64,000 nucleotides of DNA from a virus (lineage: Duplodnaviria; Caudoviricetes), in IMG/VR virus record IMGVR_UViG_3300010429_001883, positions 32,001 through 96,000 of that record, one strand, 5' to 3'. Below, one piece after another: positions 1 through 28,668 of this stretch. The translations under genes and the position numbers were made by a program. The notes beneath the pieces are model-generated. The model did not search any database, was not told the DNA's origin, and saw nothing but the letters and a program-made list of their open reading frames with translations. Each line of letters begins with the position of its first letter. The first letter of the stretch is position 1.

Positions 1-1
1 A

Positions 2-928
2 AACTCTTTCGGCCCCTGCCGTGAACATGGTGAGGAACTGCCGATCAGTGAAACAGGCACCGCGATGGTCCACGATACCTCCCACGATCAGCAGGCTGAC
101 CGACGGCAGCCAGTCGGTCTTGAAGTTGACCTCGTGGTAAACGATGTCAACACCAGGACCAAGGCGCCAAGAGACACGAGCATTGCCCTTGACAATGCCT
201 CTGCCCTTAAACACAATTCTCACACACTTGAGAATTGTGCCTTCGGGGAGAGGCTGGACTCCCCGAGCGCGCCAATTAGATCCATATAGCAGGCGCATAA
301 TGTACTCGCCTGATACATGAATACACCCGTCATGGGCAGCCTTAAGGCTGGCTTCGAGAACGTCGTCAATTTCGACGCCCTCAGAAGCCGTAACCTCTCG
401 CTGCCCCTCGTCGGTGAGCACCGCGTACCGAAGGCTTTCCGACTGCCAGTCGACAGCCAGAACGCCGCCCAGTAAGGCGCTCATCCGAGCGAAGACGGTG
501 CCCATGATGGCTTTCATGGGCTTGTCTGATGTAGGCATGCCCCACATGGACATGCCCTTGACCACTCCGTCAGCCCAATCGGGGTGGACATAGAACGTCC
601 ACTTGGACTGTCGGATGACGCACCACAGGGTCGTGGGCTTACGGAGCTCACCACGAAGAAGGGTTACCGCCTTCTTTCGCAGCCACGCCTTTCGGGTGCG
701 GACGACAGAAGCATCGACGTCCCAAGACTCAATTCTGAGCTTGGAAGCATCGAGCTTCTTTGATTCGAGGAAGCCCAAGAGGACGGCAAATCGGCCCGTC
801 TCCTGGGATTCCTCACGCTCAACGTTGAGGTACCGGCCTTCCTCAACCGAAACAGTCACTTTCGTTTTAGGAAAGCGGCTGTTGTTGAGGAGTGTCCCCA
901 ACTTTCGCATGGCTTTCAGTACAGCCAT
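2..928 (-). CDS. N-terminal ~309 aa of a putative YonO/QDE-1-like single-subunit two-barrel RNA polymerase (runs off window edge)
   Basis: Translated by hand because it is absent from the ORF track (no stop in window). ATG at 928-926 with RBS AAGGAGGAG; frame open to base 2. Motifs in order: FARMS, HDGCIHVS, R..KGRGIVKG, DIVYHEVNFK, TDRQFL, matching the AR / DG..IS / R..KG / I...K / NRQ order of the RdRP/YonO family. Confidence 0.65.
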   Translation of the reverse strand, partial: MAVLKAMRKLGTLLNNSRFPKTKVTVSVEEGRYLNVEREESQETGRFAVLLGFLESKKLDASKLRIESWDVDASVVRTRKAWLRKKAVTLLRGELRKPTTLWCVIRQSKWTFYVHPDWADGVVKGMSMWGMPTSDKPMKAIMGTVFARMSALLGGVLAVDWQSESLRYAVLTDEGQREVTASEGVEIDDVLEASLKAAHDGCIHVSGEYIMRLLYGSNWRARGVQPLPEGTILKCVRIVFKGRGIVKGNARVSWRLGPGVDIVYHEVNFKTDWLPSVSLLIVGGIVDHRGACFTDRQFLTMFTAGAERV

Positions 929-938
929 GGCTCCTCCT

Positions 939-1280
939 TTATTCCCAAGGAGGGAGATCGGTGGCCGGACATTCGGTGTCCGGCTCTCGCCCTCCAGAAG
1001 GAATCGGCTCTGTGGGGATTAGCCACGACTTGGCCGCAGCCAAGGAGCTAAATCCCCGGAAATTGGCACCCGACAGGTTCTGAGTGAACCCGTAGGCGCC
1101 TTTCTGGCCATACCATCCCTCGATGATAAGGCCTTCCGGGTACAAGAAGACGGACTTGCCGATGTCCGCCTTCGTGTAGCGGGATTTGATCCGCTCTCGG
1201 ATCTCCTCCCGGTTCTTTTCGGAGATCTTAATGGAGAAGAAGCGGAAACGCTCCTTCACCTTATAATAAGGTGCTGCCAT
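939..1280 (-). CDS. Protein with RNase H1 N-terminal hybrid-binding (Cauli_VI/viroplasmin-like) domain
   Basis: GGAGG RBS. C-terminal half GLIIEGW..AYGFTQNLSGANFRGFSSLAAAKSWL resembles the GIY..W......GYSGA.YK.F.....A..FL pattern. Confidence 0.55.
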   Translation of the reverse strand: MAAPYYKVKERFRFFSIKISEKNREEIRERIKSRYTKADIGKSVFLYPEGLIIEGWYGQKGAYGFTQNLSGANFRGFSSLAAAKSWLIPTEPIPSGGREPDTECPATDLPPWE

Positions 1281-1289
1281 CTTGGCCTC

Positions 1290-1382
1290 CTAGTGCTTGC
1301 GGAGATAGCGAGCGGTGGCCTCGCAGATCTCCACAAGAACCCAAAAAATGAGGATAGCGAACACTGGCCAAAAGTAGGCCAT
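1290..1382 (-). CDS. Small single-TM protein (30 aa)
   Basis: MAYFWPVFAILIFWVLVEICEATARYLRKH; TAATG coupling to upstream gene and GAGGAG RBS. Confidence 0.55.
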   Translation of the reverse strand: MAYFWPVFAILIFWVLVEICEATARYLRKH

Positions 1383-1528
1383 TAGCTGTTCTCCTCGATG
1401 TGCTCGAGGACAGTCATCGCAACGGTGACTGCCCCGAACAAGATGACCACCGCGCCCACTGCGTATGCAATGAGCAACGGTGGGTACAAAATACAAGATT
1501 GGAGCAGCTGCTCCAATCCCAACGCCAT
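1382..1528 (-). CDS. Small membrane protein (48 aa)
   Basis: Hand-translated MALGLEQLLQSCILYPPLLIAYAVGAVVILFGAVTVAMTVLEHIEENS; TAATG coupling and CAGGAGG RBS. Confidence 0.55.
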   Translation of the reverse strand: MALGLEQLLQSCILYPPLLIAYAVGAVVILFGAVTVAMTVLEHIEENS

Positions 1529-2418
1529 TACGCCACCTCCTGGAGGAGGACGCCCAGCCGGGCGAGCTGGACGTCCACCACCGCCTGAGCCCTTGCGAGG
1601 CTCAGGTCGGTGGCCTCCATACGGGCCTTCTGGGCCCGGAGTTGGGCGGCGCCGGAGTGGATCGCCGCCAGGATCGCCGCGTTGTCCTTCAACGCGGCGA
1701 TAAACTCCGGATGCCTTGCTGTGGCATCCAGAGCGGCGACGACGTCCGCCGCGGCGAGGCGGCGGGAGGCTTCAAGCCCCCGGAGCCGAAGCTCCAGGGA
1801 CTTGATCCGCCGGGCAGTTTCCCGGCGGCGGACAGCAAGCCCTGCCCATTCCTGGGCGAGGGCCACCTGGCGGAGGCGCATCCGCCAGATGTTGAGGGCC
1901 TTCTCGGCCTTGGCCGCGTCGGGCCGCGTCCAGGCCGAGCCGCTCCCCCACTGCTTGGGGGAGCGGGTCTTGGTCTCCACCGGCTTGCGCCAGCGAAGAA
2001 GCCGGGCCTTGCGGGCCGCAGCCCGCTTGGCCCGACGTTCCTCCAGCCGCGGGTGCTGGAGTGCCTGCTCCAGCGCCGCAGCCTCTTCGCGCCGTTGGCG
2101 GCGGCGCGAAGCTTTGGAGGAATGGCCCTCCAAGCGGGTCAGCACCCGCTTGGAGGGGTTGGCCGAACACATTCGGGCCTGCGCCTCAGAAGCGAGGCGG
2201 GCAGCCCGAAGCTGCTTGGACGCGACAGCCCGGCGGAGCCGAGCTGTCCGGATAGCCTGGGCGCAGGGGCCGGCGCCCACGGTGGCGCCCCGGAAGGCGC
2301 CCAGGATGGTCCGCCCCTTGGGCGGGCGAACCATCCCCTCCTGGGCCAGCAGGGCCAGCCCGATCAGGGCCAGCGCCTGAAGGCCCATGAGGACGGTCAG
2401 GACGAGGATGATGCTCAT
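1528..2418 (-). CDS. Membrane-anchored Ala/Arg-rich coiled-coil protein
   Basis: AAGGAGG RBS, N-terminal hydrophobic helix, coupled to the next gene. Confidence 0.65.
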   Translation of the reverse strand: MSIILVLTVLMGLQALALIGLALLAQEGMVRPPKGRTILGAFRGATVGAGPCAQAIRTARLRRAVASKQLRAARLASEAQARMCSANPSKRVLTRLEGHSSKASRRRQRREEAAALEQALQHPRLEERRAKRAAARKARLLRWRKPVETKTRSPKQWGSGSAWTRPDAAKAEKALNIWRMRLRQVALAQEWAGLAVRRRETARRIKSLELRLRGLEASRRLAAADVVAALDATARHPEFIAALKDNAAILAAIHSGAAQLRAQKARMEATDLSLARAQAVVDVQLARLGVLLQEVA

Positions 2419-2420
2419 TA

Positions 2421-2482
2421 GAGCACCTCCTTGTTGTTGCGTTTAAGCTAGCTGTATGTCGCTAGCGGGCACGTCGTAGCCC
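2421..2482 (-). promoter_or_regulatory. Structured 5' leader, copy 1 (two hairpins + TTAAACGCAA + RBS)
   Basis: Near-identical to 3359-3415; stem 2 is GCTAGC/GCTAGC. Confidence 0.7.
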
Positions 2483-2596
2483 ATATGTCAACCCATGGGT
2501 GTAAGCGTCAATACCGCCGCTACCATGGGGTACTACTACAGATAGCCCTGTAGCACAGCCGCTCCTCTTTTACGTCTTTGGAGTCGCGCTCGGACT

Positions 2597-2652
2597 GGGG
2601 CATGACACTCCATGCCCCTGTAAAAGATCATACTCCCATGAGTGTATGGGAG
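2597..2652 (-). ncRNA. Two hairpins with mutually complementary 6-nt loops (kissing-loop candidate)
   Basis: + strand GGGGCATG-ACACTC-CATGCCCC and CTCCCAT-GAGTGT-ATGGGAG. Confidence 0.6.
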
Positions 2653-2667
2653 GGAACGTTACTTTGA

Positions 2668-2835
2668 CTACTTGGTGGTCATGGTCTCGGCGGCCGCCAC
2701 CAACACCACCCGGTCGGCGGCCGACATGGCCGCCAGGTAGCGGCGCATGAACGCCACAGCCTGGGCCGTGGCGCTCACCTTCTGCTCCACCGTTGTCAAG
2801 GCCGCAGCCTTGACATTCGTCTTCTTCTCGGTCAT
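2668..2835 (-). CDS. Hypothetical protein (55 aa)
   Basis: ATG at 2835 with TGGAGG RBS (MTEKKTNVKAAAL...). Confidence 0.6.
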   Translation of the reverse strand: MTEKKTNVKAAALTTVEQKVSATAQAVAFMRRYLAAMSAADRVVLVAAAETMTTK

Positions 2836-2991
2836 GGTATCTATCCTCCACTGGGCGGGGCGTGCCGTTGCAGAGAGCCCCTTTAACCCATACTTAACCC
2901 CATAATCCATATTATGAGGTTGAGTATGAGTGCCCGATATTTATTATCGCCTCGGAGCAGGGCGATATCTTACATCCCCTTAGATCGGGGC

Positions 2992-3357
2992 TTAGTTGGT
3001 CTGGGTAGCCACCTCAATGTGGGTGAACTCTCGGCGGGGGGCATACACCGCCTGAAGGGAGAACAGCATGTCGATTGCCTCTTCCCGGTAAGAGGCTCGG
3101 GTTGACTTGAAGAGGTGGTTGTCGATCATAAGATTAACAACCCAATACCCGGAGTTCAGTTCTCTGATGTAGCCGGAACAGAGCCCGTTCCGGCCATCAT
3201 ATTTAAAGCTGCGGGTGGTGGTGGTCATGTCCTTGACCACACGTGGGGTGGCGGGGACGGCCTTGGCGTTGGCCTTGGCCTTGGCGTCGAGGGCGGCGGC
3301 GATCACGATGATGCCGATGATCACGACGATTCCGATCACGATGGCGATGATGCTCAT
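2992..3357 (-). CDS. Membrane-anchored hypothetical protein
   Basis: GAGGAGG RBS; N-terminal Ile/Val-rich TM helix; starts MSII like 1528-2418. Confidence 0.7.
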   Translation of the reverse strand: MSIIAIVIGIVVIIGIIVIAAALDAKAKANAKAVPATPRVVKDMTTTTRSFKYDGRNGLCSGYIRELNSGYWVVNLMIDNHLFKSTRASYREEAIDMLFSLQAVYAPRREFTHIEVATQTN

Positions 3358-3358
3358 A

Positions 3359-3415
3359 GAGCACCTCCTCTTTTTGCGTTTAAGCTACCTTAAGGTAGCG
3401 GGCACGTCGTAGCCC
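3359..3415 (-). promoter_or_regulatory. Structured 5' leader, copy 2
   Basis: Repeat of 2421-2482; stem 2 is GCTACC/GGTAGC (compensatory change). Confidence 0.7.
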
Positions 3416-4030
3416 TTTAAACCACATTAAAGCACATTAACATTACTGCTAATGTACTTTAAAATGGGGAGGGGACTACCTACCCATAGCCCATGGTATG
3501 TACCTTGTGGTACTCATGGAGCTAGGACTATGGCATAGGCAGTCCCCTCTAGTGGAGGGAGATACCAACCCACTAGCTGTCACCTAGTGAGTTGATATGG
3601 ATTTATGCTACTACTTGCACCGTAGCATCTGGTGCGTGTCAGTAGCCAGGGACTACACACTAGTGACCACTATTTGTGGTATAGTGCGCTGTTGGGCAAC
3701 TCGGGTATAAGGCAATATGCCTACCCTTGGCCCATCCTGGGTAACCAACACATGTATTGTCGTACTAGCACACTGGTATGCTAGAGTACCTGGTATTCTC
3801 CTTCAAAGGAGATAACAGAATAGGTACTTTACGGTATGTCCACCATCTTATGGACATAGCCCTACTGTTTGATGTAGGACATCATCTGTGTGGGAATAAG
3901 CCACACTCTTCTCTCGCTTTTCTAGATAAAGCAAGGCAAACTGTTGATGGGGTGATTGCCAATGGAGATGGCCCATCAACCGACGGGGTGGCATTGAAAC
4001 GAATTGCTTCGTCACAACACCACTACTAGG
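3416..4030 (-). ncRNA. Putative ~600-nt highly structured non-coding RNA or leader
   Basis: More than ten inverted repeats back to back; stem mismatches become G-U pairs on the minus strand; no credible ORF. Confidence 0.6.
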
Positions 4031-4213
4031 TAACCTCTAAAAAATATAAGTCCTTTTTTCCCTATATAAGGCTTTTTCCTTTTTTTCTAATTTCCTTTTT
4101 TCCTTTTAACCTTACACCTTCCTTAAAATAATTTTAAGTATTGTGATTTTTCTTGTTTATTTCTAGGTAAAGTTAGTGTATAATAGAGATAAGTCTAAAG
4201 AAGGAGAAAGCAG

Positions 4214-4429
4214 ATGTTTAATGATAGGTTTAAATGGTTAGTGATTGAGGAGGACGGGTGGGGTGACAGAACAAGTGGGGCTTGTTTCAAGAATAAGAGG
4301 GATGCAATTAAGAGGCTAAAGGAAATTAATTTAATGAATGGGTACACAGGGAAGTGTGCGGGTGCTCAATTATACAAGTTAGAACTGGTTGATACGAGTG
4401 ATGTTAATTGCATTTTGGAGGACAACTAA
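4214..4429 (+). CDS. Hypothetical protein
   Basis: AAGGAG RBS; TATAAT at 4179-4184 upstream. Confidence 0.65.
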   Translation: MFNDRFKWLVIEEDGWGDRTSGACFKNKRDAIKRLKEINLMNGYTGKCAGAQLYKLELVDTSDVNCILEDN

Positions 4430-4430
4430 G

Positions 4431-4676
4431 GTGTTCAAGTTACCGGGCAGGGTCAATGAAATAGCCAAAGTCTATTTAATTAAGAAGGGCGATGAAACTC
4501 CTAGGATTATTCAAGCGAAGCAGGCGATAGACGACATGCAATATTTATTATGTGTTTTAGCTGTAGTGAGTAATGCTTATGAGAATTTAATGGAGGGTGC
4601 AGACGATGAAGCTGTAGACTTATCTATGGATGTGGATAAATTAATAAGTAGTGGAACTGACATTTTATATAGGTGA
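4431..4676 (+). CDS. Hypothetical protein
   Basis: GTG start after GGAGG; in frame with ORF 4389-4676. Confidence 0.55.
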   Translation: MFKLPGRVNEIAKVYLIKKGDETPRIIQAKQAIDDMQYLLCVLAVVSNAYENLMEGADDEAVDLSMDVDKLISSGTDILYR

Positions 4677-4688
4677 GGTATTTAAACC

Positions 4689-4970
4689 GTGGCAATAGAA
4701 TTAAGAGAGAGTTTAGTACTGGTAGTAGATGGGGCGGAGCTTGAGGTAACTAGGGAGGAAGCGGAGGAGATATATGAGGTATTGAAGAGGTACTTAAACA
4801 AGGGTGAGGAGATCAAGTGGGTACCGTGGTATCCCACACCATATTTTTATGAAACCACTTATCCACCGGAAGGGGGGAAGTGGGAGGTTACTATTACTAC
4901 GAATGCGGAGGATGGCAACGAAGGGCCTTGTTATATATCTGACATGAACCAACCTAACAGGGTATGGTAA
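4689..4970 (+). CDS. Hypothetical protein
   Basis: GAGGT RBS, GTG start, tandem operon packing. Confidence 0.6.
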   Translation: MAIELRESLVLVVDGAELEVTREEAEEIYEVLKRYLNKGEEIKWVPWYPTPYFYETTYPPEGGKWEVTITTNAEDGNEGPCYISDMNQPNRVW

Positions 4971-4973
4971 GGT

Positions 4974-5162
4974 ATGGGACAATCAATAAACAAGGATGAA
5001 GTAATGGTAGGTGAGGTACTAGTGGATGTAAAGGACAATTTACTTCACGAGAGGTATTTTGATAATCCTTGGCTAGCTGAGAAGACGATATATGAATTAG
5101 TAGGGATAGTGGAGCAACTACTTGTTTACATAGAGGTATTATCGAATGAAGGTGGGCGGTGA
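4974..5162 (+). CDS. Hypothetical protein
   Basis: Tight operon packing. Confidence 0.5.
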   Translation: MGQSINKDEVMVGEVLVDVKDNLLHERYFDNPWLAEKTIYELVGIVEQLLVYIEVLSNEGGR

Positions 5163-5237
5163 GTATAATATACAGAAGTGTAAATTTTAGTTATACTATA
5201 TAACTTGGGAATTTCCCTGTAAGGGAGGTAGTTAAGT

Positions 5238-5444
5238 ATGAAATTTGGATTTAAAAGAAACACCAAGTTTATGGAGAAGATAGCTGACAGGTTAGAGAAT
5301 GGTTATTATGATGTAGACAGTTACCTAGACATATTGGAGAAGTGCTGTGATGAGTTTGAGGTGGGGGCGGAGGAGCTATACGAGGAACTCCGCAAAGAGA
5401 AGTATTTAAGGGATTTAGCTATAAAGAAGAATTTTTCTGACTAA
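5238..5444 (+). CDS. Hypothetical protein
   Basis: AGGGAGG RBS; TATACTAT motif upstream. Confidence 0.6.
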   Translation: MKFGFKRNTKFMEKIADRLENGYYDVDSYLDILEKCCDEFEVGAEELYEELRKEKYLRDLAIKKNFSD

Positions 5445-5557
5445 CAATTAAAAAGGGAATTAAAAAGCATATATTCTAGGTATAAGTGTGTACCTAAAAT
5501 ATAGTGATATAAGGAATTAGAGATTTTAAAAACGCCGCGGCGGCTTCAGGAGTATAG

Positions 5558-5959
5558 ATGGCCAATTACATATTGATTGAAATACCTGAGACAGATGAGA
5601 ATGGGGATGACATAGATCTTTATCAATTGGATAAGATAGTCTTCATGATAAAGACTAGTTTAGATCCAGTAAGTGTACGGAACGTATTAAGTGTAGCGTA
5701 CAGGAAGATAAATGATTCAGTTCAAGGCGAGTTATGGTATAATGAATGGTTAGGTTCTCACAGTGATTGTAGTAAGGTAATTGAGGCCATGGGGTACTTA
5801 GGTGAATCTGTAGGTAAGAAGTTAGTGGATACTTATAAAGCAATGAATGAAAGTCAGTTAGTTAATTTAGAAGAGTTTTTAGAGGAGTACAAGAACAGTC
5901 CTGATTTAACGGACATAGTGATGAAGAAGGATGACAAGAGGGAAGAGGATGGTTACTAA
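5558..5959 (+). CDS. Hypothetical acidic protein
   Basis: CAGGAG RBS. Confidence 0.65.
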   Translation: MANYILIEIPETDENGDDIDLYQLDKIVFMIKTSLDPVSVRNVLSVAYRKINDSVQGELWYNEWLGSHSDCSKVIEAMGYLGESVGKKLVDTYKAMNESQLVNLEEFLEEYKNSPDLTDIVMKKDDKREEDGY

Positions 5960-6581
5960 GCCATTTACTATAAGTTTTGACATTGATGGTGTCTGGTGTG
6001 ATTTTGTTTTTGGGTTTACCAAGATAGCTCAAGAACTGGGTATGATAACCCACGTTAACAAAGTTCAAGAACAAAAATACTGGTCATTTAAAGATTCTCA
6101 TGGTTTAACTGATAAGGAACATGAGAGGTTAGTTGAGAGGTTAGAGGAATTAGGGGACAGGTTTTGGGTTAGCATCCCGCCGGTTAATGGGATTACTCCT
6201 TGGGAAACGTATAAGAGCTTGAATAGGAGATCGGATACTAGAATAGTCTTTATTACTTCCAGGCGGTTTTGTACCCTTGGTGGGATTCAAGAGTGGTTCA
6301 AGCAATACGGGCAGATAGACATAAAGAAAGAACAGATTTATATGGTTACTAATAATGACAAAAGGTCGGCGGCCATGCAGGCAGAAGTAGATATACATAT
6401 CGACGATAGCCCCGAGGCGCTGGAACTGTTACTCGATAAACCCTACCCTAAACAAGTAGTCGGGATAAAGTATAAGTATAACGAACATCTGTGGGCAGAT
6501 AAACGTATTATGTGGGTTGATTCTTTAATTGATTATTTATTGCTTTGCCAACAAACCTTACGAAAAGAATATGCGTATTAG
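5949..6581 (+). CDS. HAD-superfamily 5'(3')-deoxyribonucleotidase-like protein
   Basis: Motif I FDIDGV, motif II FITSR, motif IV IHIDDSP. Confidence 0.8.
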   Translation: MVTKPFTISFDIDGVWCDFVFGFTKIAQELGMITHVNKVQEQKYWSFKDSHGLTDKEHERLVERLEELGDRFWVSIPPVNGITPWETYKSLNRRSDTRIVFITSRRFCTLGGIQEWFKQYGQIDIKKEQIYMVTNNDKRSAAMQAEVDIHIDDSPEALELLLDKPYPKQVVGIKYKYNEHLWADKRIMWVDSLIDYLLLCQQTLRKEYAY

Positions 6582-7130: not shown

Positions 7131-7304
7131 ATGACCGAACTTAAAAATATGAAAAAAGATGATTTAAAGAAACTTATCGGCAAACTGGAATACCTCCGTC
7201 GAGTGGCTACTAAGCAAGGTAAAAAAGAAAAAGAAGATGACTATACCCGCTATCTTATCTACTTGAGGAAATTATATCGTATGAAGATGAAGGAAGAACT
7301 TTAA
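7131..7304 (+). CDS. Small basic hypothetical protein (57 aa)
   Basis: GGAGG RBS, hand-translated MTELKNMKKDDL..., TAATG coupling to the next gene. Confidence 0.55.
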   Translation: MTELKNMKKDDLKKLIGKLEYLRRVATKQGKKEKEDDYTRYLIYLRKLYRMKMKEEL

Positions 7305-7906
7305 TGGAGCCATTCATACCACAGGGAGAACGTGCTCTCGTTGCTAGATATGTTAGGGGACTTATTAGAAGAGTCCCCTATACTTTATATGTTGAACCTA
7401 GAATAGGGGATGGCATGTTTGCTTATGGGGTATATCCTCATAATGCAATATTAAATGACGTTGGTACCGGCGCCGCTAATGCACTGAGAGTTATCAAAAA
7501 TAATATCTCAGCTTTCTTTAATACGGTAGAAGAATTAAGAAAAGAACCAATTAATCAAAACTATATAGATCATGTAAAACGAGCAGTTACTTATTGCGCT
7601 AATAAAAATAACTACGCTTTCATTGATGAAAACTTCTATAACTTGGTTGAATTGTCTCAATACTTGAATGATAATAATGTATTAATAAATAGCGGCGATA
7701 ACATAGAAGGTTGCTTGAGTAATGTAGAAAGAAAAAATCTGGTTGTTATTAGCAATCCAGATCTTGATGAAAACTTACTTGAAATGTTAGAAGCTACTAA
7801 AGCGTATTATATATTGATTTTGACTAATTCCTCTGATGAAAGCATTCCACTTATATCATCTGGCCTAGAAGAAACATCTTCTAGGTGTCTTAAGAATTTC
7901 CGCTAA
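7304..7906 (+). CDS. Degenerate Dam/D12-class DNA adenine methyltransferase-like protein
   Basis: YVEPRIGDG and AILNDV resemble YVEPFxGGG / AILNDIN; no DPPY motif (ISNPDL at the expected place). Confidence 0.5.
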   Translation: MEPFIPQGERALVARYVRGLIRRVPYTLYVEPRIGDGMFAYGVYPHNAILNDVGTGAANALRVIKNNISAFFNTVEELRKEPINQNYIDHVKRAVTYCANKNNYAFIDENFYNLVELSQYLNDNNVLINSGDNIEGCLSNVERKNLVVISNPDLDENLLEMLEATKAYYILILTNSSDESIPLISSGLEETSSRCLKNFR

Positions 7907-16664: not shown

Positions 16665-17421
16665 GCCACACCTTCCAAGGAGCATTACCAGAATTCCATA
16701 AATCTTCTAATTCGTTTTTATCTCTCAGATTATCCATGCACTTCCAAAAATCGAAGTGTTTGTATGTTTGTAATTTTCCATCGTTGCAAATATCCCTAAG
16801 AGCCTCTCCTTCCCAAGAGGTTTTGTCACTTTCTATGTAATCAATGGCTTTTTTGTCACAAACAAAAAATCCACCATTTATCCAAGTACCGTGGGGTTTT
16901 TCTGCAAAAGCAGTTGCTTTCCCAGTTAAATCTGTTTCTACTGCACCAAAACGGCCTGGCTGTTGTATTGCTGTCATAGTGACTAATGAGCCGTTTAGAT
17001 CGTGGGTGGATACCAAGGCTTGTAAATTTATATTGGCAACACCATCCCCATACGTAAGCATGAAAGTATCACCATCTATATAATCACAAATTCTTTTTAT
17101 TCTTCCTCCTGTCTGTGTGGTTAGCCCAGTATCAATCATTGTAACAGCCCAATCTTCATCATCCTTGCTGTGATAAAAGATACTGCCCCCTCTAATTGTA
17201 ATATTTGATTGATAAAGGAGGTAGTGATGAAAATATTCTTTAATCATATGCCCTTTATATCCAAGGCACAGAATGAAATCCTTAAATCCATAGTAGGAGT
17301 ATAGTTTCATGATATGCCATAGAATGGGCTTACCTCCAATTTCAACCATGGGCTTTGGTCTAAGTTGAGTGTCCTCGCTAAGCCTAGTCCCCATTCCACC
17401 AACAAGTATAACTACTTTCAT
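16657..17421 (-). CDS. rfbF: Glucose-1-phosphate cytidylyltransferase
   Basis: GGMGTRLSE..PKPMVEIGGKPILWHIMK, TYGDGV, INGGFF, FWKCMD. Confidence 0.95.
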   Translation of the reverse strand: MKVVILVGGMGTRLSEDTQLRPKPMVEIGGKPILWHIMKLYSYYGFKDFILCLGYKGHMIKEYFHHYLLYQSNITIRGGSIFYHSKDDEDWAVTMIDTGLTTQTGGRIKRICDYIDGDTFMLTYGDGVANINLQALVSTHDLNGSLVTMTAIQQPGRFGAVETDLTGKATAFAEKPHGTWINGGFFVCDKKAIDYIESDKTSWEGEALRDICNDGKLQTYKHFDFWKCMDNLRDKNELEDLWNSGNAPWKVWHD

Positions 17422-18257
17422 ACATTCCTCTCAGTTGCTATTTTTTGGGTGTATTCTATGAACCTCGTTAAACTATCCTGAAATTGTTGATACTTTTCTA
17501 CATAAATATTTCTCATAGCTTCACTGTTCATTGTTGATTTAGCTTTATCTGTTTCTTCAATACCCCACCCACACCCCAACCACCCCGTTTCTAGGTTTAT
17601 TTCGTCTTTTTTAAAGTAACCATCAGGAACTATTACTACTGGGCACCCACATAATCTGGCATTATCATATAAAGATGTAACTACATCATACGTTATGAAA
17701 AGTTCAGACCTACAAAATAATTCAGCCAGTTGGTTTTGTTCTTGTGGCCACCCTCGTGTTATTTCTTTTGCTCCAGCTGTTTCTGGAATTCGTTTAGTTC
17801 TCGATCCTTTTCCTACATAAAAACAAATACCTGATCTTGGTAATTTACGATCATAATAAATATCCAATTCGATTGTTGGAAGGAAAAGTTGTCTTTCATC
17901 AGGCAATCCAAACATGCCATAGGCTTTTGAAAACGGATAAATTAGATCTTCTGGTGGGTATTCTGTTGGGCCACCTATTTTACCTGGCCTGTTTAAAACC
18001 CACCTAACGACTGTTTTGCAATTAAATGGATTACCGAATATAATTTCTGGGTATACTGCGATAGCCCCTGACTTTGAAATTCTTTCAATTGCTGGATCAT
18101 TGGTTAGGGGGGCAACTTTCCACGGCGGATGCTGCACATCCGTATTCATGTATACATATGCGTTTCTTTTTTGTATTTCATAAGCCAATGCGTGTAATGT
18201 TTTACATCCGCCGCTTCTTCTATCAAATGGAGGTGCCCAAACAATATATGGAAACAT
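17418..18257 (-). CDS. Polysaccharide-locus protein, probable GT-B-fold glycosyltransferase
   Basis: SGG..LH.L, AVYPE..GNPF, FYVGKG, A.LCGCPVV; context. Confidence 0.5.
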   Translation of the reverse strand: MFPYIVWAPPFDRRSGGCKTLHALAYEIQKRNAYVYMNTDVQHPPWKVAPLTNDPAIERISKSGAIAVYPEIIFGNPFNCKTVVRWVLNRPGKIGGPTEYPPEDLIYPFSKAYGMFGLPDERQLFLPTIELDIYYDRKLPRSGICFYVGKGSRTKRIPETAGAKEITRGWPQEQNQLAELFCRSELFITYDVVTSLYDNARLCGCPVVIVPDGYFKKDEINLETGWLGCGWGIEETDKAKSTMNSEAMRNIYVEKYQQFQDSLTRFIEYTQKIATERNV

Positions 18258-18265
18258 GGTTTGTA

Positions 18266-19024
18266 CTACTCAACAAAATTTTCTATCTTCCTATTATAAA
18301 AATTATTTACATAATATTGTTTTGTGTTAACCAACTCTTCTCTCCTTTTATTAAATTTATATATAAATTGCTTGGCTTCTCTTTCTTTAAATGCAGTATA
18401 CTCTGATTTTGCTCCGGTGTCAATTGGTTTAGTATTAAAATGCAAAACAAAGCAAAACAATTTATTTAGTAAATATATTCTATAGAATAATTCAGAGTCT
18501 TCGTATCCATACTTGGTAAACTCGTAAAAGAAGCCTAATGCCTTTCTGAGTGCTGGACCAATCATTATAAAGTCACCGGTTATGCCACCATATGTTGTTG
18601 TCCCAACTTCTACGCCGTCTTCTAACCTGAACCTAGAAACTATTGGTCTATCTTTGTAGGTGTGAACACCTAGAACACCTATTTTAGGGTTTTCTGCTAA
18701 GCAATACATCATCCATTGATCCCAGTTAGGTGTATTAATTTCTACATCATTGTCTATTTTAGTAAAGTAATAATTATCTGGTATGTAAGAAAGCACTTGA
18801 TTAAGTGCGCCACCAACACCAATGTTCTTTTTATTGAGAACTAATTTTATTCTCGGATTTTCTTTTTTAAATGCTTTTAAATACGAAACTGTTTCTGTAT
18901 CAGACCCGTTATCAATAACAAAAATTTCAGTATCTCTAGAAGTGTTTTCTACAAGCTTTGGCAATGACTGTTGTGTTAAATAGAGCCTATTGAAAGATGT
19001 ATAACAAATTGCACCAAGCATCAC
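18266..19024 (-). CDS. GT2 glycosyltransferase
   Basis: IDNGSD, NIGVGGALN, KIDND, GYEDSE. Confidence 0.85.
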   Translation of the reverse strand: MMLGAICYTSFNRLYLTQQSLPKLVENTSRDTEIFVIDNGSDTETVSYLKAFKKENPRIKLVLNKKNIGVGGALNQVLSYIPDNYYFTKIDNDVEINTPNWDQWMMYCLAENPKIGVLGVHTYKDRPIVSRFRLEDGVEVGTTTYGGITGDFIMIGPALRKALGFFYEFTKYGYEDSELFYRIYLLNKLFCFVLHFNTKPIDTGAKSEYTAFKEREAKQFIYKFNKRREELVNTKQYYVNNFYNRKIENFVE

Positions 19025-19815
19025 AGTTCTCCTGGAAATTTAGGAACTGTTAGCTGCCCTCTTAAACTTTTAGTTTTTGTTTCAGCAATTATCTTTGTTT
19101 CTTCTAGTTGTCCAAGATCTATGTGCTTACCAATGAAATCTATTAAGTAAATAGCTTCTCCATGTTTTCTCAATGTTTGAGAAAGCCGAGTATCTTCAAA
19201 ACCATATATTCTTTCTTCACTAAATCTTTTATTCTTTAAAAGATCTGCTCTGTACATGCTGCAAGCTCCAAGTAAGTGAGGAACTTTACCAATAGCATAC
19301 TTGTTGCCGGTTGTTGTTTCTATGTAGTACTTTGGGTTCCAGTTTTCATCCACAAAGTTATTTTTTATATCAAGTTCACTGTGTGGAGTTAGCCCAACTT
19401 GGCTATAACTGCCATTTGAGTTTTCAAGGACATCAACCAAACCGAAGAGCCAATCTTTACGAACCTTTTCTTTTGGTATGCACAGGAAAGGGATATGGAC
19501 AATTCTTTCTTTGGTTGGAACTATGAAATCATTATCTAATTTTAGGAAGTGTTGTTCTGGTTTTCTAATGTCCAAAACAGTATTTAGAACTTTACCAACC
19601 CCATAATTCTTGTCAAAGAAATGCACTTTAAAGGTTGACCCGTTGTCAAGAACCTTTCCGTCCCAAGTCTTTAAGTATTCAACTACATCCTGGGGTGAGC
19701 CGTTGTCGCAAATGACGCAATCAAATGGCATATTTGTAAGCTCTAATGCTTCCAAACACTCTTTTGTATAAGAAAGCCTATACCAACTTGTAATTCCAAT
19801 TAATACTTTATTCAT
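19021..19815 (-). CDS. GT2 glycosyltransferase
   Basis: CDNGS, NYGV..LN, KLDND, YGFED. Confidence 0.85.
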   Translation of the reverse strand: MNKVLIGITSWYRLSYTKECLEALELTNMPFDCVICDNGSPQDVVEYLKTWDGKVLDNGSTFKVHFFDKNYGVGKVLNTVLDIRKPEQHFLKLDNDFIVPTKERIVHIPFLCIPKEKVRKDWLFGLVDVLENSNGSYSQVGLTPHSELDIKNNFVDENWNPKYYIETTTGNKYAIGKVPHLLGACSMYRADLLKNKRFSEERIYGFEDTRLSQTLRKHGEAIYLIDFIGKHIDLGQLEETKIIAETKTKSLRGQLTVPKFPGEL

Positions 19816-20567
19816 TTCAACCTGCCTTCTTTAATCCACTGCTCGTGTTTTTTTGACATCCTGTTTGCTGCCTTAACATGCTCTCCGGCGATATTAGGAA
19901 CCTTGCTTATGCTTCGACTACCATAATGTAAGATCCAAGAATTACCGACGATATAGGCCGTATATTTGTTTCTTTCCATTCGCCAGTGGTAATCAACATC
20001 TTCCATCATGCCAAATGGGGCTATTTCTTCGTCTAAAAATCCAACGTCGTCTAGAAGATTGCGCTTGAACAGTAAACAAACAAACGGAACGTGGGAGTTG
20101 TAATGATGAACGTTGTCATTGTACCATGAGGGCTTCTCCGAAGCCGATTTGACAACCTGGGCAGGCACACACGCAAAGGTCGTAAGTGGGGCGACATACC
20201 CCAGCTTGCGATCCCCCAATGTAGAACTTACCTTGTAGCTTCTTAAGCAGTCTTCATACCCTGAAGTTAGTGCCGATAGCCAGTTTTCCGACACTACGGT
20301 ATCATTATTCAAGATACAATAATAGTCTTCATCGGATTCGGAAAACCTTAAACAGTACCTCAATCCGTGATTATATCCGCCAGCAAAACCAGTGTTTGTG
20401 GACAGATTAAGATAATCTACACCAATATGTTCTAAGAAATTAGTATTATCCGTTGATCCGTTATTCACGAACACTATGTGTGCTTTTGGCGAAAAGGCCT
20501 TAACACTTTCTATACATCCCATGGAAAGTTCCCAATTATTCCAACCAACTATAACAACGTGTACCAT
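19812..20567 (-). CDS. GT2 glycosyltransferase
   Basis: VNNGSTD, NTGFAGGYN, LNNDT, GFLDE..EDVDY. Confidence 0.88.
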   Translation of the reverse strand: MVHVVIVGWNNWELSMGCIESVKAFSPKAHIVFVNNGSTDNTNFLEHIGVDYLNLSTNTGFAGGYNHGLRYCLRFSESDEDYYCILNNDTVVSENWLSALTSGYEDCLRSYKVSSTLGDRKLGYVAPLTTFACVPAQVVKSASEKPSWYNDNVHHYNSHVPFVCLLFKRNLLDDVGFLDEEIAPFGMMEDVDYHWRMERNKYTAYIVGNSWILHYGSRSISKVPNIAGEHVKAANRMSKKHEQWIKEGRLK

Positions 20568-21337
20568 TAGTTGACCAGCCTTACTTTTTTGATCGCTAGC
20601 CACGGAATAGCAATCTCCCCTGCAACAAAAGCAGTTATATTAAGAACTTGTAAAAACTTTTGCCAGTTGGAAACGTTCAATATCTTGTTCTTGTAATGCT
20701 CTGTTACTTCGGAAACATCTTGAGCAATTTGTGCTATATAAAATGTTGAATCGTTCATGCCTTCCGCCGTTGCTTGAACTTCAGTTAATAGAATGTTAAC
20801 ATTGCCAAAGATTTCTTGAAGTTGTGTACCTATGATATTCAAGTCATTTGTACCAGCTTCCAGGAATCCTACAATTTGGTCTTTTATAACAATAGTTACC
20901 ATCCCACGAAGCTCAATGATTGTTCTTCGTATTTCAGGTAGAACGCCCATTTCCTGATCATTCATATTATAATTTGTATCTTGAATGAATACTCTAAAAT
21001 CTGTAATAGCTAAATTAGCTGTATCAAATGTTTGAGACATTTTTGAGTTCATATTGCTAAAGGATTTATCAAGGTTTTTATTAACATTTGTTACAGCATC
21101 GACTGTTTGTACTTGAAGCTTTTCCAGGATTTCATTATCATGAATAAATTTTTTATGTGCCTCTACTGTGGCAACTTTTAAATACCTTGCAGTATCTCTT
21201 ATGCTGTCCGTAGTCTGTTCATACTTTGGTTTTAAATCTGCCAAATAAAGATATTCCCAAATAGCTGTTTGCCAAACCAGTACACACAGCCCAGCAACTA
21301 GAAAACATTTTAAATAAAAATACACTTTTTCTTTCAT
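20567..21337 (-). CDS. Helical protein with N- and C-terminal TM segments
   Basis: Hydrophobic ends with a long heptad-like middle. Confidence 0.6.
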   Translation of the reverse strand: MKEKVYFYLKCFLVAGLCVLVWQTAIWEYLYLADLKPKYEQTTDSIRDTARYLKVATVEAHKKFIHDNEILEKLQVQTVDAVTNVNKNLDKSFSNMNSKMSQTFDTANLAITDFRVFIQDTNYNMNDQEMGVLPEIRRTIIELRGMVTIVIKDQIVGFLEAGTNDLNIIGTQLQEIFGNVNILLTEVQATAEGMNDSTFYIAQIAQDVSEVTEHYKNKILNVSNWQKFLQVLNITAFVAGEIAIPWLAIKKVRLVN

Positions 21338-21882
21338 CTGTGAGTAACCCCGCTGGATACAAAAGTTGCTATTTTATTTCCAACAAGAAGTCTCATTAGC
21401 GTGTTAGGGTCTGTGAACGATGGCCTTATTGTTCCATTAAGAATACCTGACTTGGCAAGACCGCCCATAATAAGTTCTGAGCAAAACCACTTCGTTGGAT
21501 TTTCTTTATCTTCGTTTGTTTTATCAAGGATTGGATCATAAACTGGATTTAGTAAGAAATTTAACATTGCCCTAAAATCATATTTCTTATAAACCTGTTC
21601 TAGGACGAATCGTTCAAAAGCCATTTTCTGTGCCAGAGTACAGGGAATGTTAAATATATCATACTTTGTTCCACTTCTGTGTGAAAAATTTATATCAGCT
21701 ATTCTTACCCAGCCTCTCCAAGCTTCGACAACTATTGGCACATTTTTACAGTAACAAATGTTTGAGTTTGGTAATAAATAGGCTATGTGTGAGTACGGTC
21801 CGTTTGTTCTTAATTTTATTAGTTTAGATAATATAGACTTTCCTGAACAAGCTAATAGATTAATACTATCTGTCATTATCAC
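21334..21882 (-). CDS. Permuted papain-like NlpC/P60 (YiiX/YebB-like) amidase
   Basis: PYSHIAY, KYDF, WFCSELI (His before Cys). Confidence 0.75.
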   Translation of the reverse strand: MIMTDSINLLACSGKSILSKLIKLRTNGPYSHIAYLLPNSNICYCKNVPIVVEAWRGWVRIADINFSHRSGTKYDIFNIPCTLAQKMAFERFVLEQVYKKYDFRAMLNFLLNPVYDPILDKTNEDKENPTKWFCSELIMGGLAKSGILNGTIRPSFTDPNTLMRLLVGNKIATFVSSGVTHR

Positions 21883-22250
21883 TCCTGCGGCGAACCTTCT
21901 TCTATTTTTTGAATTTCTCCCCTTAGTTTATACAATTCTACACCAAGATCATGTAACTCGTACTCAAGCTCACCAATTTTGTTTAATATAATTTCTTCTT
22001 TAGACAACAATTCTTCTAGATTAATGGGTTTTCCCTCTTCATTTACTTTTACCATATATTTTCCCTTCACAAAACACTCTTTCGCTTTAAATGATTCAGA
22101 CGGATTGGCAAGGTCAGATAATGCCTTTAATTGCTTTGACCATAACGTACAATAGGCTCCGAACTTAAACATTCTAACCCAAAAATAGCAATTAGAACAA
22201 AATATGCCTTGAGGTATTTCTATTTCATTTTTAAGTTTTCTTTTTGCCAT
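21879..22250 (-). CDS. Hypothetical Cys-rich protein with C-terminal coiled coil
   Basis: CSNC..C..C pattern. Confidence 0.6.
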   Translation of the reverse strand: MAKRKLKNEIEIPQGIFCSNCYFWVRMFKFGAYCTLWSKQLKALSDLANPSESFKAKECFVKGKYMVKVNEEGKPINLEELLSKEEIILNKIGELEYELHDLGVELYKLRGEIQKIEEGSPQE

Positions 22251-22270
22251 TTTCTCTCTTTAAATGGAGC

Positions 22271-22336
22271 GGGCCGGGTGTTTACCTTTTAAGGTTTTTA
22301 TCAGCTAAGTGCTGAGACATTGTAAAACTCCGGCCC
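22271..22336 (-). ncRNA. Structured leader/sRNA (three-way-junction candidate)
   Basis: GGGCCGG/CCGGCCC closing stem, TCAGC/GCTGA and ACCT/AGGT hairpins, starting at the predicted TSS. Confidence 0.45.
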
Positions 22337-22342
22337 ATTACC

Positions 22343-22371
22343 ATTTTACTAATTTATTTATTATTTGTCAA
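22343..22371 (-). promoter_or_regulatory. Sigma70-type promoter
   Basis: TTGACA-17 nt-TAAAAT. Confidence 0.75.
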
Positions 22372-22382
22372 GAAGTTTATTA

Positions 22383-23335: not shown

Positions 23336-23381
23336 ACACTCCTCCAAATAATCAGTTAGTGGTCTGTTGCCACTTATGTGT

Positions 23382-23409
23382 AGTATAGCACAAAAATTTC
23401 AAATGTCAA
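23382..23409 (-). promoter_or_regulatory. Sigma70-type promoter
   Basis: TTGACA-16 nt-TATACT with extended -10 TG. Confidence 0.65.
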
Positions 23410-23554
23410 CTAGATATTTTATGCGAATTGGCATGAAATTTGCTATATATAATATATTATTAATTACTGTATATGATCAGCTACAGTAACTAGTAAAATT
23501 ACAGTATCTAGTCAGCTACTACAGTAACTGTAGACTTACAAGATACAGAGAGTA

Positions 23555-23587: not shown

Positions 23588-23609
23588 ATATACTCTATAG
23601 AAAATTTAC

Positions 23610-28665: not shown

Positions 28666-28668
28666 ATC

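Follow-up and report, generated by a model that had tools for sequence, protein, structure and literature searches.

The first 4030 nucleotides of the window, by which we mean the whole stretch of 64,000 nt analysed here (positions 32,001-96,000 of IMGVR_UViG_3300010429_001883, from an uncultured tailed phage), appear to form the promoter-proximal half of a leftward transcription unit of about 7 kb, extending from contig position 36,030 to about 29,000. We propose that this is an early or pre-early unit encoding small membrane proteins and a non-virion two-barrel RNA polymerase of the QDE-1/YonO/P23-45 gp64 kind, and that its transcript has been selected for dense structure, perhaps with a protective effect; the probability that we give to this reading as a whole is about 0.55. 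By analogy with genes 59-77 of P23-45, the unit would start a cascade of phage polymerases. We infer its early timing, promoter, transcript ends and transcribing enzyme, and its place as the first-expressed unit is suggested by the same analogy. Base-pairing would extend from end to end, through a 670-nt hairpin-array leader, the spacers and the synonymous sites, and the high GC content, chiefly at third codon positions, would be largely a means or by-product of this selection rather than a mark of foreign origin. A phage polymerase uncoupled from ribosomes would make few long transcripts from the single incoming genome, and dense pairing could shield these scarce molecules from RNA-targeting defences or from host RNases that attack single strands, with local hairpins over ribosome-binding sites enforcing translational coupling. 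That the structure serves as a protective shield is put forward only tentatively.

The GC-rich island and its operon

A sequence-only reading of this DNA had described a leftward operon with TAATG coupling that adjoins an AT-rich phage genome, and this tightly coupled arrangement is borne out. Its GC spot counts (42/60, 31/60 and 15/60) were reproduced exactly on recount. The GC content is 58.2% at positions 1-4030 versus 37.8% at 4031-64000, and it drops from 0.44 to 0.33 between 3750 and 4350 in sliding windows of 300 nt, in agreement with the abrupt switch claimed near 4030. The GC-rich block is thus real, but the window edge is not its end: it extends leftward to about contig position 23,700, for a total of about 12.3 kb. 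The AT-rich side is that of a tailed phage, with terminase, portal, major head protein, tail fibres and ribonucleotide reductase, and a completeness estimate of 78% gives a phage size of about 190 kb.

L007, a Logan contig assembled independently, runs across the junction and matches window positions 3452-4206 at 94.6% and 4690-4901 at 91.5%; four assemblies continue through this point. In L009 and L010, the polymerases of which are 30-31% identical to that of this phage (P0001), islands with a GC content of 0.55-0.75 lie within DNA of 0.40-0.47. There, a folded zone of 13-15 kb (z -3 to -13) begins sharply at the divergent junction, with flanks at about 0. The presence of a GC-rich structured island in relatives with 30% protein identity marks it as a maintained lineage trait and not a recent import; that it is real and conserved is almost certain. 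Adaptation to a GC-rich host, as previously suggested, is not supported, the same island lying within lower-GC DNA in these relatives.

With regard to third codon positions, P0001 has GC1/2/3 values of 0.61/0.41/0.71, and the GC3 of ribonucleotide reductase is 0.30. An SNF2 helicase cassette within the island has a GC3 of 0.88 without any folding excess, and is mobile, being 99.85% identical in L017 in an unrelated context and absent from L007. GC-richness and folding are separable, since contig positions 23,700-29,000 are high in GC yet not folded, whereas P0017 and RNAP-1 are folded yet not GC-rich.

The genes of the operon in the window are as follows.

1-928, minus strand: first 309 codons of P0001, a gene that runs on leftward to contig position 29,575 (L005:11575-14928)
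939-1280, minus strand: ORF of 113 aa directly upstream of the polymerase gene, with an AGGAGG ribosome-binding site
1290-1528, minus strand: two small hydrophobic peptides, of 48 aa (1382-1528) and about 30 aa (1290-1382)
1528-2418, minus strand: 296-aa protein with an N-terminal membrane helix, then a long Ala/Arg-rich region
2668-2835, minus strand: small ORF of 55 aa, with ATG at 2835 and a GGAGGA ribosome-binding site (80 aa if the start is 2910)
2992-3357, minus strand: 121-aa protein with an N-terminal membrane helix, beginning with MSII like the 296-aa protein

The strong ribosome-binding sites, TAATG coupling and small membrane proteins noticed earlier are all present. Each of the ORF starts at 3357, 2418, 1528, 1280 and 928 follows a GGAGG-type site, and a TAATG stop/start overlap is found at 1528. 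By reading of the sequence, a second TAATG overlap lies at 1382, each hydrophobic peptide being joined in this way to the preceding gene, and the internal start at 2835 has its own GGAGGA. Genes of matching size occupy the same position in L007 and L011 for both the 113-aa ORF (107 and 110 aa) and the 296-aa protein (298 and 299 aa), and an N-terminus similar to that of the latter can be read in L009 at about 6593; neither of the two matched a Pfam or PHROG family. The 1528-2418 gene, with 70-74% GC and a GC3 of 0.85, is the stretch with the highest GC and the strongest folding. The DNA of the small ORF at 2668-2835 is 80% identical to L007. In L007, the segment 1290-1528 has no match (alignment gap at window 1260-1523) and the stretch 2992-3357 has no counterpart, and no hydrophobic peptide genes were called at the corresponding place in L011. 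For the RNA/hybrid-binding protein that had been suspected in the block, Pfam and PHROG searches gave no support.

The polymerase P0001

The ORF cut by the window edge is the start of P0001, a protein of 1117 aa, residues 185-740 of which were modelled with AlphaFold2 (pLDDT 82). Aligned over 380 residues, the modelled core matches QDE-1 with a Z score of 17.1 (Foldseek E 8e-10); the scores are 15.9 for RDR2 and 13.2 for P74-26 gp62, and the fold of the core also matches Thermus phage gp64; sequence identity of QDE-1 and RDR2 to the core amounts to 11-17%. Residues K247, G248, Q297, D499, D501, D502 and D712 of P0001 are invariant across the family. A GGADLDDE motif replaces DxDGD in P0001, and RNAP-1 of the same phage carries the canonical GDFDGD motif. 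A direct Pfam search with P0001 yielded no match, and the Pfam RdRP family PF05183 is matched by the distant homologue P0017 (1.5e-10) and weakly by P0005 (0.048). Judging from the structural model, P0001 is very probably a single-chain two-barrel RNA polymerase. A polymerase had indeed been proposed for the block; the loose likeness to T7 drawn at the same time is not supported, the enzyme being of the two-barrel QDE-1/YonO/gp64 kind.

Folding of the transcript

The following elements accompany the genes; spacers were folded on the minus (sense) strand and compared with shuffles.

908-953, minus strand: two hairpins over the P0001 translation start, with perfect 7-bp inverted repeats
2415-2495, minus strand: conserved leader element, copy 1, with a 20-nt core; the element is conserved in L007 and L011
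2419-2667, minus strand: structured spacer (z -3.19; 0 of 200 shuffles as stable)
2836-2991, minus strand: structured spacer (z -3.80; 0 of 200 shuffles as stable)
3354-3425, minus strand: conserved leader element, copy 2, with the same 20-nt core
3358-4030, minus strand: ORF-poor leader of 673 nt with about 15 consecutive hairpins (z -10.1)
3985-4045, minus strand: conserved boundary element, AATTTT..AGAG, then 33 nt, then GTTTCA(N3-4)CCACCCC
4046-4140, minus strand: purine-rich tract of about 100 nt, pyrimidine-rich on the plus strand, between the divergent units

The three large spacers previously described as folded all beat their shuffles (z -3.2, -3.8 and -10.1), the leader reaching -287.8 kcal/mol versus -201.2 for shuffles, and the AT-rich neighbour at 4031-4700 having a z of +2.35. 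Control by RNA structure in the spacers, as envisaged before, was right in that structure is a dominant feature, but too narrow, since the structure is pervasive and present in synonymous sites too. The folding excess spans the whole operon of about 7 kb, coding DNA and spacers alike: the coding stretch 1-600 on the minus strand has a z of -12.85 (100 shuffles), and the zone has a mean z of -4.97 with 79% of its 200-nt windows below -3, against a mean of -0.5 for the right arm. Perfect inverted repeats with stems of at least 7 bp occur at 6.8 per kb, versus 0.97 per kb after shuffling and 0.87 per kb in the right arm.

When the energy of native mRNAs was compared with that of synonymous-codon shuffles, the P0001 mRNA (-1515 versus -1172 +/- 18 kcal; z -19) proved 29% more stable, and six further polymerase genes showed a folding excess as in P0001. 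The z values obtained were -12.8 for P0005, -14.8 for P0004, -8.5 for P0006, -11.1 for P0010 and -16.6 for P0017, and those of the controls were -1.2 for ribonucleotide reductase and -1.0 for the SNF2 helicase. P23-45 gp64, shown experimentally to be a pre-early gene (PMC10770324), has an excess of 23% (z -16.5), and the TerL and portal genes of that phage are near 0. The other pre-early genes of P23-45 have an 8% excess, like the rest of its genome; as the excess is strong in gp64 only, the link of folding to the pre-early class as such is weak. In the same test, SPbeta yonO displayed an excess of 0%.

With regard to selection, pairs changed on both sides were kept in 43 cases and broken in 24, compared with about 25 kept and 38 broken in shifted controls, and third-position divergence is 0.29 at paired versus 0.40 at unpaired sites. 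In all likelihood, the structure has been selected and is not incidental. The sense strand has a lower z than the antisense strand (-4.97 versus -4.03, p 0.03) and, despite its nearly symmetric base composition, gives the more stable fold in 21 of 23 windows; better folding of the sense strand is also seen in a control region with G>C skew. Relative to L007, the hairpin stretch of the leader shows scattered differences only (coding DNA is 79-87% identical). In one stem, two double changes are compensatory, and several changes on one side of a stem retain G-U pairs on the minus strand. Within coding sequence, a substitution on one side leaves G-U no more often than A-C (62 versus 59, and 46 versus 32), so that the structure may instead have its cause in the DNA or turn over through template switching. 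On balance, the structure probably works at the RNA level.

The leader matched no Rfam family at E <= 10. The conserved leader element, with exactly two copies of its 20-nt core in the 148-kb contig, is ordered as TTGACA-TAT, GGGCTACGACGTGCCC, GCTA, a variable hairpin, GC-TTAAACGCAA, SD and ATGAGCATC. The inner-hairpin arms of its two copies differ, each pair being complementary (GCTAGC/GCTAGC versus GCTACC/GGTAGC). The element may be a promoter plus 5' hairpin, or a processing site. Over the P0001 start, the hairpin at 933-953 pairs an anti-SD with the SD (CCTCCTT...AAGGAGG) and that at 908-929 encloses the ATG, an arrangement that could gate or couple translation of P0001. The boundary element lies at the exact onset of GC-richness and folding. 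It occurs once in this contig, is also found in L007 and is present twice each in L009 and L010 (the 3' half of the upstream L010 copy is degenerate), at loci sharing no other DNA similarity; we regard it as a candidate operon promoter. The adjoining purine tract is 100% identical in L007, and comparable A/G-rich tracts stand at its place in L009 and L010.

Alternative explanations and known systems

Nascent RNA structure restricts backtracking, which would suit a folding ratchet in transcription-coupled genome entry. A virion polymerase, tethered and possibly without a clamp, would transcribe the block as the first DNA to enter, and the RNA, folding at once, would prevent backtracking and R-loops and help to pull or hold the DNA. 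The P23-45 virion polymerase gp96 has no clamp and has been proposed to be active during DNA translocation; the stretch that it covers is the 9-kb pre-early region, located at the physical genome end of that phage (PMC10770324). The GenBank end of P23-45 is the divergence point between leftward early and rightward structural genes, a geometry found here too, with the folding onset coinciding exactly with the boundary element. Such a ratchet is nevertheless unlikely given that four assemblies continue through the junction, that a search for a virion polymerase in this phage gave no evidence of one, that folding covers 13-15 kb in L009 and L010, and that RNAP-1, distant from the junction, is folded as well. 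Pairing might instead keep Cas13 or type III crRNAs, antisense RNAs or toxin RNases from reaching the essential polymerase mRNA; the strongest folding is in the polymerase genes of several lineages, and the hairpins turn over individually, as expected if general inaccessibility counts. As a separate explanation, this seems improbable, and it overlaps the RNase-shield reading and is inseparable from it here.

A property of the DNA itself, whether cruciform or N4-like single-strand hairpin promoters, an origin or packaging region, protection of the entering DNA or a local excess of quasi-palindrome mutations from template switching, would agree with inverted repeats folding on both strands (antisense z -4.03), with the G-U and A-C counts in coding DNA, with the boundary motif being located inside a hairpin and with a leader set between divergent units beside a purine tract, a typical origin site. 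It is given a low probability because the sense strand is favoured, leader substitutions retain G-U pairs on that strand only and ribozyme-like motifs lie on the sense strand in L010; moreover, an origin leaves 7-15 kb of folded coding sequence and the hairpins sequestering ribosome-binding sites unexplained. Elsewhere, a folding excess this large is characteristic of single-stranded RNA viruses, and the best structural matches of P0001, QDE-1 and RDR2, have RNA-dependent activity, so the folded transcript could be imagined as a template or replicon-like RNA amplified by a QDE-1-like polymerase. This is highly improbable: the studied phage members YonO, gp64 and gp66 work on DNA templates (PMC5467207, PMC10770324), no replication signals were identified at the termini, and the polymerase gene needs DNA-templated transcription first anyway. 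Foreign DNA or artefact, that is, a recent GC-rich import, host chromosome by an att site or a chimeric assembly, might be suspected from the compositional jump and the truly mobile SNF2 cassette. Host chromosome and chimera had been named in the sequence-only reading as what would undo it. L007 crosses the junction, phage genes lie on both sides, and neither a tRNA nor, among the proteins scanned, any integrase family was found. With the recurrence of the island at 30% protein identity and its phage-specific promoter-like motifs, this explanation is largely refuted.

The closest known arrangement to that proposed here, an early polymerase unit with a structured transcript, is the P23-45 cascade, in which the virion RNAP is gp96, a fusion with the tape measure protein, and is followed by pre-early genes 59-77 including gp64 (PMC10770324). 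Both have a single-chain two-barrel non-virion polymerase, a leftward unit from a divergence point, phage-specific promoter motifs downstream and a synonymous-site folding excess in the polymerase gene. However, P0001 is nearly double the size of gp64 (1117 versus 616 aa) and structurally nearer QDE-1 (Z 17.1 versus 13.2), and no counterpart has been described for the GC island, the leader of 670 nt or such extreme folding along a whole unit; the text of PMC10770324 uses none of the terms "hairpin", "stem-loop", "RNA structure" and "secondary structure". YonO of SPbeta (PMC5467207) and PF05183 belong to the same superfamily, with a single chain and two double-psi beta-barrels, but P0001 lacks DxDGD and a direct Pfam match, and yonO lacks the folding excess. 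Neurospora QDE-1 and plant RDR2, the best fold matches, are eukaryotic silencing enzymes with a presumably different role.

Clusters of self-cleaving ribozymes (hammerhead, twister) are known from phage and bacterial DNA (PMC3088659, PMC6765202). At the same operon place, a correspondence of position and not of sequence homology, the sense strand of the L010 spacers contains two hammerhead-like motifs and a twister-like one, with scores below Rfam gathering, whereas no known ribozyme class in Rfam scores in the spacers of the window. The N4 and T7 early regions resemble the proposed unit in their polymerase-cascade logic. The polymerases of N4 and T7 are T7-like, not two-barrel, and the N4 early unit, served by a virion RNAP, is headed by three small DNA-hairpin promoters, in contrast to the kilobases of folded sequence found here. 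As in GORS of single-stranded RNA viruses and RNA phages, the excess runs across coding sequence and stems turn over with foldedness retained, but here it stays within a single transcription unit, and the phage has double-stranded DNA. Its occurrence in distant relatives and, more weakly, in P23-45 points to an undescribed selection acting on the first phage transcripts.

The GC-rich block and the candidate polymerases

The source record is linear, 148,472 bp long and an estimated 78% complete, and the window corresponds to its bases 32,001–96,000. The right part encodes a terminase, a portal, a major head protein, tail fibres and a ribonucleotide reductase. The source is a tailed phage without a close cultured relative; its terminase shares only 26–30% identity with terminases from phages of Moorella, Bacillus and Acinetobacter. 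No tRNA genes were found. Window positions 1–4030 are 58.2% GC compared with 37.8% for the remainder; the three spot counts of the sequence-only reading were all exact, and the switch is abrupt, as it had stated, from 0.44 to 0.33 over 3750–4350. The leftward genes carry the strong ribosome-binding sites that it described, of GGAGG type, upstream of the ORF starts at 3357, 2418, 1528, 1280 and 928, and the TAATG coupling is present as stop/start overlaps at 1528 and 1382. The block is real in composition and organisation, and it is larger than first described, continuing past the window edge to contig ~23,700 (in coordinates of the whole record).

A chimeric assembly had been named as a possible source of the junction. 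The Logan contig L007, which comes from a different run, matches window 3452–4206 at 94.6% and 4690–4901 at 91.5%, that is, on both flanks, and therefore crosses it. In the two distant loci L009 and L010, the polymerase genes again sit in a block of 0.55–0.75 GC within DNA of 0.40–0.47 GC, and these loci share almost no DNA similarity with the window, the sole match being 91 bp in L009. On this evidence, the GC-rich block is neither a chimera nor a recent import. One piece of the island is mobile, an SNF2-helicase cassette of 2.64 kb (contig 23,680–26,317; L005:5680–8317), which encodes 711 aa with a DUF5710 domain, has a third-codon-position GC (GC3) of 0.88 and shows no folding excess; it is 99.85% identical to positions 244–2881 of an otherwise unrelated contig (L017:244–2881) and is missing from L007, and looks recently mobile. 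At the end of the record, 472 bases (contig 148,001–148,472) reach 67% GC vs ~37% before them, which could mark the edge of a further GC-rich island or be an artefact of the contig end.

P0001, a protein of 1117 aa, begins in the ORF that the window edge truncates. Sequence searches of Pfam, PHROG and PDB with all seven ORFs and P0001 returned nothing usable, and P0001 gave no match to the Pfam RdRP family PF05183 at E <= 0.1, nor did anything else in its own genome; among its relatives, P0017 matches this family at 1.5e-10 and P0005 weakly, at 0.048. An AlphaFold2 model of the core (residues 185–740), built from 20 sequences, reached a pLDDT of 82, and a full-length model from 5 sequences (pLDDT 36.6) was left out. 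The core model has a pair of double-psi beta-barrel domains in the arrangement known from QDE-1, its best match (Z 17.1, rmsd 4.6, 380 aligned, Foldseek E 8e-10), followed by RDR2 of maize (Z 15.9), gp62 of Thermus phage P74-26 (Z 13.2) and gp96 of P23-45 (Z 10.4), with gp66 of phi14:2, a crAss-like phage, as a weaker match. Residues invariant across 20 family members include K247-G248 and D499, D501 and D502 in GGADLDDE, a variant of the DxDGD / NADFDGD acidic loop with the third acid one position earlier and a candidate for metal binding. On the basis of these fold matches and the invariant loop variant, P0001 is predicted to be a single-chain two-barrel RNA polymerase of the QDE-1 / YonO / P23-45 gp64 kind. 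The likeness to the T7 early region that had been proposed does not hold, as this fold is not the Pol I-type right-hand fold of the T7-like polymerase.

A second candidate, RNAP-1, is an ORF of ~1146 aa (L004:14298–17738, minus strand) carrying GDFDGD. It probably gives the phage a second two-barrel enzyme, its look-alikes in the atlas being clusters of PF05183 (score 0.91); P0001 and RNAP-1 share no pairwise similarity, and the family profile matches P0001 alone in the genome. The tape-measure slot holds an ORF of 1649 aa (L015:7488–12437), which gave no PDB or PHROG match and no polymerase signal by sequence; its look-alikes in the atlas, at only 0.83–0.85, are proteins of the tail or tape measure.

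Only four close homologues of P0001 were found among 5.8 billion clusters, the two distant ones, 30–31% identical, being those of the L009 and L010 loci; when 1.84 billion representatives were searched with a profile, 21 relatives emerged. Repeating the homologue search with a wider alignment made no additions, the IMG/VR search gave no further relatives, GenBank phages held no match to P0001 or P0017, and a metagenome scan returned a single related contig of 1.5 kb, from activated sludge. In L009, the polymerase (L009:10001–15196, 1731 aa) has a C-terminal fusion to NUDIX and PIF1-type helicase domains. Another contig, L018, is 96–98% identical to contig 17,167–23,064, yet its polymerase slot (L018:1365–4412, corresponding to contig 29,575–32,928) holds P0010, only 20% identical to P0001; from this alignment, near-identical phages appear to have exchanged highly divergent polymerase modules.

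Pervasive folding encoded in synonymous sites

The sequence-only reading had described the large spacers as hairpin arrays. Against dinucleotide shuffles of the sense strand, the three spacers have z values of -3.19, -3.80 and -10.1 (z being the folding energy relative to shuffles, negative when more stable), compared with +2.35 for the adjoining AT-rich DNA. The folding extends well into coding sequence: between the junction and the P0001 end (contig 36,030–29,000), mean z is -4.97 and 79% of 200-nt windows lie below -3, whereas the means are -0.9 for GC-rich DNA further downstream and -0.5 for the right arm (55 kb sampled). These scans used 10–14 shuffles per window and are noisy singly; it is their consistency that carries the conclusions, together with runs of 100–200 shuffles, such as that giving z -12.85 for coding window 1–600 (100 shuffles). 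A count free of any energy model agrees, with 6.8 perfect inverted repeats per kb (stems of at least 7 bp) in the folded zone vs 0.97 after shuffling and 0.87 for the right arm.

The structure is encoded in synonymous sites, since shuffling synonymous codons, with protein and codon usage kept, raises the folding energy of the P0001 gene from a native -1515 to -1172 +/- 18 kcal/mol (z -19). The same shuffling yields z near -1 for the genes of ribonucleotide reductase and SNF2. GC is likewise concentrated at synonymous sites (GC3 0.71 vs 0.30). By composition- and codon-preserving shuffles, genome-scale ordered RNA structure thus spans the coding sequence regionally, not genome-wide. The operon hairpins share no stem or loop motif, which makes a repeated protein-binding site unlikely. 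Elsewhere in the window, an isolated stretch at ~23,501–23,700 (contig 55,501–55,700), between leftward and rightward gene blocks, folds strongly, with z -10 on the plus and -6.8 on the minus strand.

The polymerase operon is conserved, and its base pairing is both pervasive and selected. In L010 and L009, folding also begins sharply at the divergent junctions and extends 13–15 kb, and synonymous-codon shuffles give z -12.8 and -14.8 for their polymerase genes. The same shuffles give z -8.5, -11.1 and -16.6 for the more distant family members P0006, P0010 and P0017; the last has a GC content of only 41% and is nevertheless folded, so GC-richness is not required. The RNAP-1 gene, at only 45% GC, has z -9.6 and a folding excess (energy beyond that of shuffles) of 22%. 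Between the window and relatives 79–87% identical, single stems turn over; among pairs changed on both sides, 43 were kept and 24 broken, vs about 25 kept and 38 broken in shifted controls, and third-position divergence is lower at paired (0.29) than at unpaired sites (0.40). The region of the leader (the leader itself being window 3358–4030, minus strand) matches L007 at 94.6%, with scattered differences in the hairpin stretch, compared with only 79–87% for coding DNA, and its changes relative to L007 include compensatory and wobble-preserving ones.

Candidate promoters and ribozyme-like motifs

The signals recognised in and around the operon are the following.

Window 3985–4045, minus strand: boundary element, AATTTT..AGAG, 33 nt, GTTTCA(N3-4)CCACCCC, present once, at the operon head, where GC-richness and folding begin.
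Inside the operon, two copies, upstream of both MSII... membrane-protein genes: leader element, ~70 nt with an exact 20-nt core.
Contig 17,845–28,751, all minus strand: TTCTCTTTTCATGA motif, 11 copies within 2 mismatches, downstream of P0001.
L010:6696–6752, 7247–7301 and 7684–7736, plus (sense) strand: a twister-P1-like and two hammerhead type III-like motifs, in spacers at the same operon place.

The boundary element is found again in L007, L009 and L010, beside an A/G-rich tract of ~100 nt, and is the candidate promoter of the operon. At the divergent junction, the plus strand carries a pyrimidine-rich tract of ~100 nt (window 4046–4140) that is 100% conserved in L007 and has A/G-rich counterparts in L009 and L010; a P23-45 genome paper names triplex-forming sequences in its title, to which this tract may be related. 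For the rightward AT-rich genes, a sigma-70 promoter is not claimed: TATAAT occurs at 4179–4184, but there is no properly spaced -35 box and no scan match. The leader element, conserved in L007 and in L011, another contig, reads as a putative TATA-GGG start followed by a 5' hairpin, or could be a processing site. In P0001, the ribosome-binding site and start codon are paired in hairpins, which fits translational coupling to the upstream ORF.

The 11 same-orientation copies of the third motif can also be written T(T/A)TTCTCTTTT(C/T)(A/T)TGA, with two looser matches elsewhere in the contig. They often lie directly after terminator-like hairpins and ahead of ORFs, between the two polymerase genes (L005/L004), and the motif is a candidate phage promoter. 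The polymerase swap in L018 poses the question of which enzyme reads this common downstream motif.

With Rfam covariance models, the window spacers gave no match at E <= 10 (window 2380–4100) or E <= 1 (window 1–6000), and no Rfam families were found in L009. The two hammerhead-like motifs of L010 have complete CUGAUGA/GAAAC/GUC cores and score 42.4 and 40.6 bits (E about 1e-6), below the gathering score of 48.5; the twister-P1 match, at 41.1 bits, is below its gathering score of 67.2. By analogy with these ribozyme-like spacers at the same operon place, the 670-nt leader may hold self-cleaving or other undescribed RNA classes. The leader and the L010 spacers are places in which to seek new functional RNAs.

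Level of action and comparison with known systems

We favour action of the folding at the RNA level, with a probability of roughly 0.65, because sense z is lower than antisense z (p 0.03), the sense strand is the more stable in 21 of 23 windows despite near-symmetric composition, substitutions in the leader keep pairing on the sense strand, and the L010 motifs lie on that strand. Two results speak against it, and bear on a DNA-level role of the inverted repeats: in coding stems, G-U arises from one-sided changes no more often than A-C does (strand test, not significant), and a skewed control region favours its own sense strand too. For RNA-level action, we can propose that the unit would be expressed first, from the single incoming genome, by a phage polymerase uncoupled from ribosomes, and that dense pairing would keep long messages intact, chiefly the 3.3-kb polymerase message, shielding them from single-strand-specific RNases or RNA-guided defences.

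Other rivals give the RNA itself work to do, as a folding ratchet for transcription-coupled DNA entry or in RNA-templated synthesis by the QDE-1-like enzyme. On a bolder reading, the folded 7–15 kb transcript would be more than a shielded message, namely a working RNA, either mechanical, in expression or genome entry by the two-barrel polymerases of this lineage and P23-45, or a template or regulator for RNA-dependent synthesis, with a leader holding undescribed RNA classes; we regard this as improbable.

A compositional island in a phage genome is usually taken as a sign of horizontal transfer. Selection for RNA folding seems instead to maintain the present island, and this would call for a different rule in interpreting such islands. 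RNA viruses are known to carry kilobase-scale folding in their synonymous sites; as to transcription units of DNA phages, a literature search that included the P23-45 paper (PMC10770324) found no report, and the RNA-structure terms searched in that 2024 paper were absent.

In P23-45, the 9 kb of the pre-early region, located at the end of the genome, are transcribed by a virion polymerase that forms a fusion with the tape measure protein, and the gene for the non-virion polymerase gp64 belongs to this region (PMC10770324). The gp64 gene has a folding excess of 23% (z -16.5), and the terminase and portal genes of this phage have none. Gene 64 (NC_009803 35,290–37,140; L020:291–2141, minus strand), established experimentally as the non-virion RNA polymerase, is still annotated as 'head protein' in RefSeq. 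Strong folding of the whole P23-45 pre-early class is unsupported, the other pre-early genes having 8%, near the genome background. In SPbeta, a temperate phage, the yonO gene shows no folding excess, which rules out folding as a trait of every YonO-like polymerase gene. This gene is the founding member of the enzyme family and is transcribed by the host enzyme. As gp64 is folded and yonO is not, folding follows the polymerase genes of lytic cascades and not membership of the enzyme family; a single example either way makes this a lead, not yet a rule. The folding may reflect a constraint that acts generally on the earliest transcripts in phages bringing in or encoding two-barrel polymerases of their own. 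The cascade likeness to P23-45 extends to distinct candidate promoter motifs for successive gene classes, which appear to be present here too. Recoding offers a direct test of the idea of selected folding, since the signal occurs in gp64 of this cultured, genetically studied phage and yonO lacks it.
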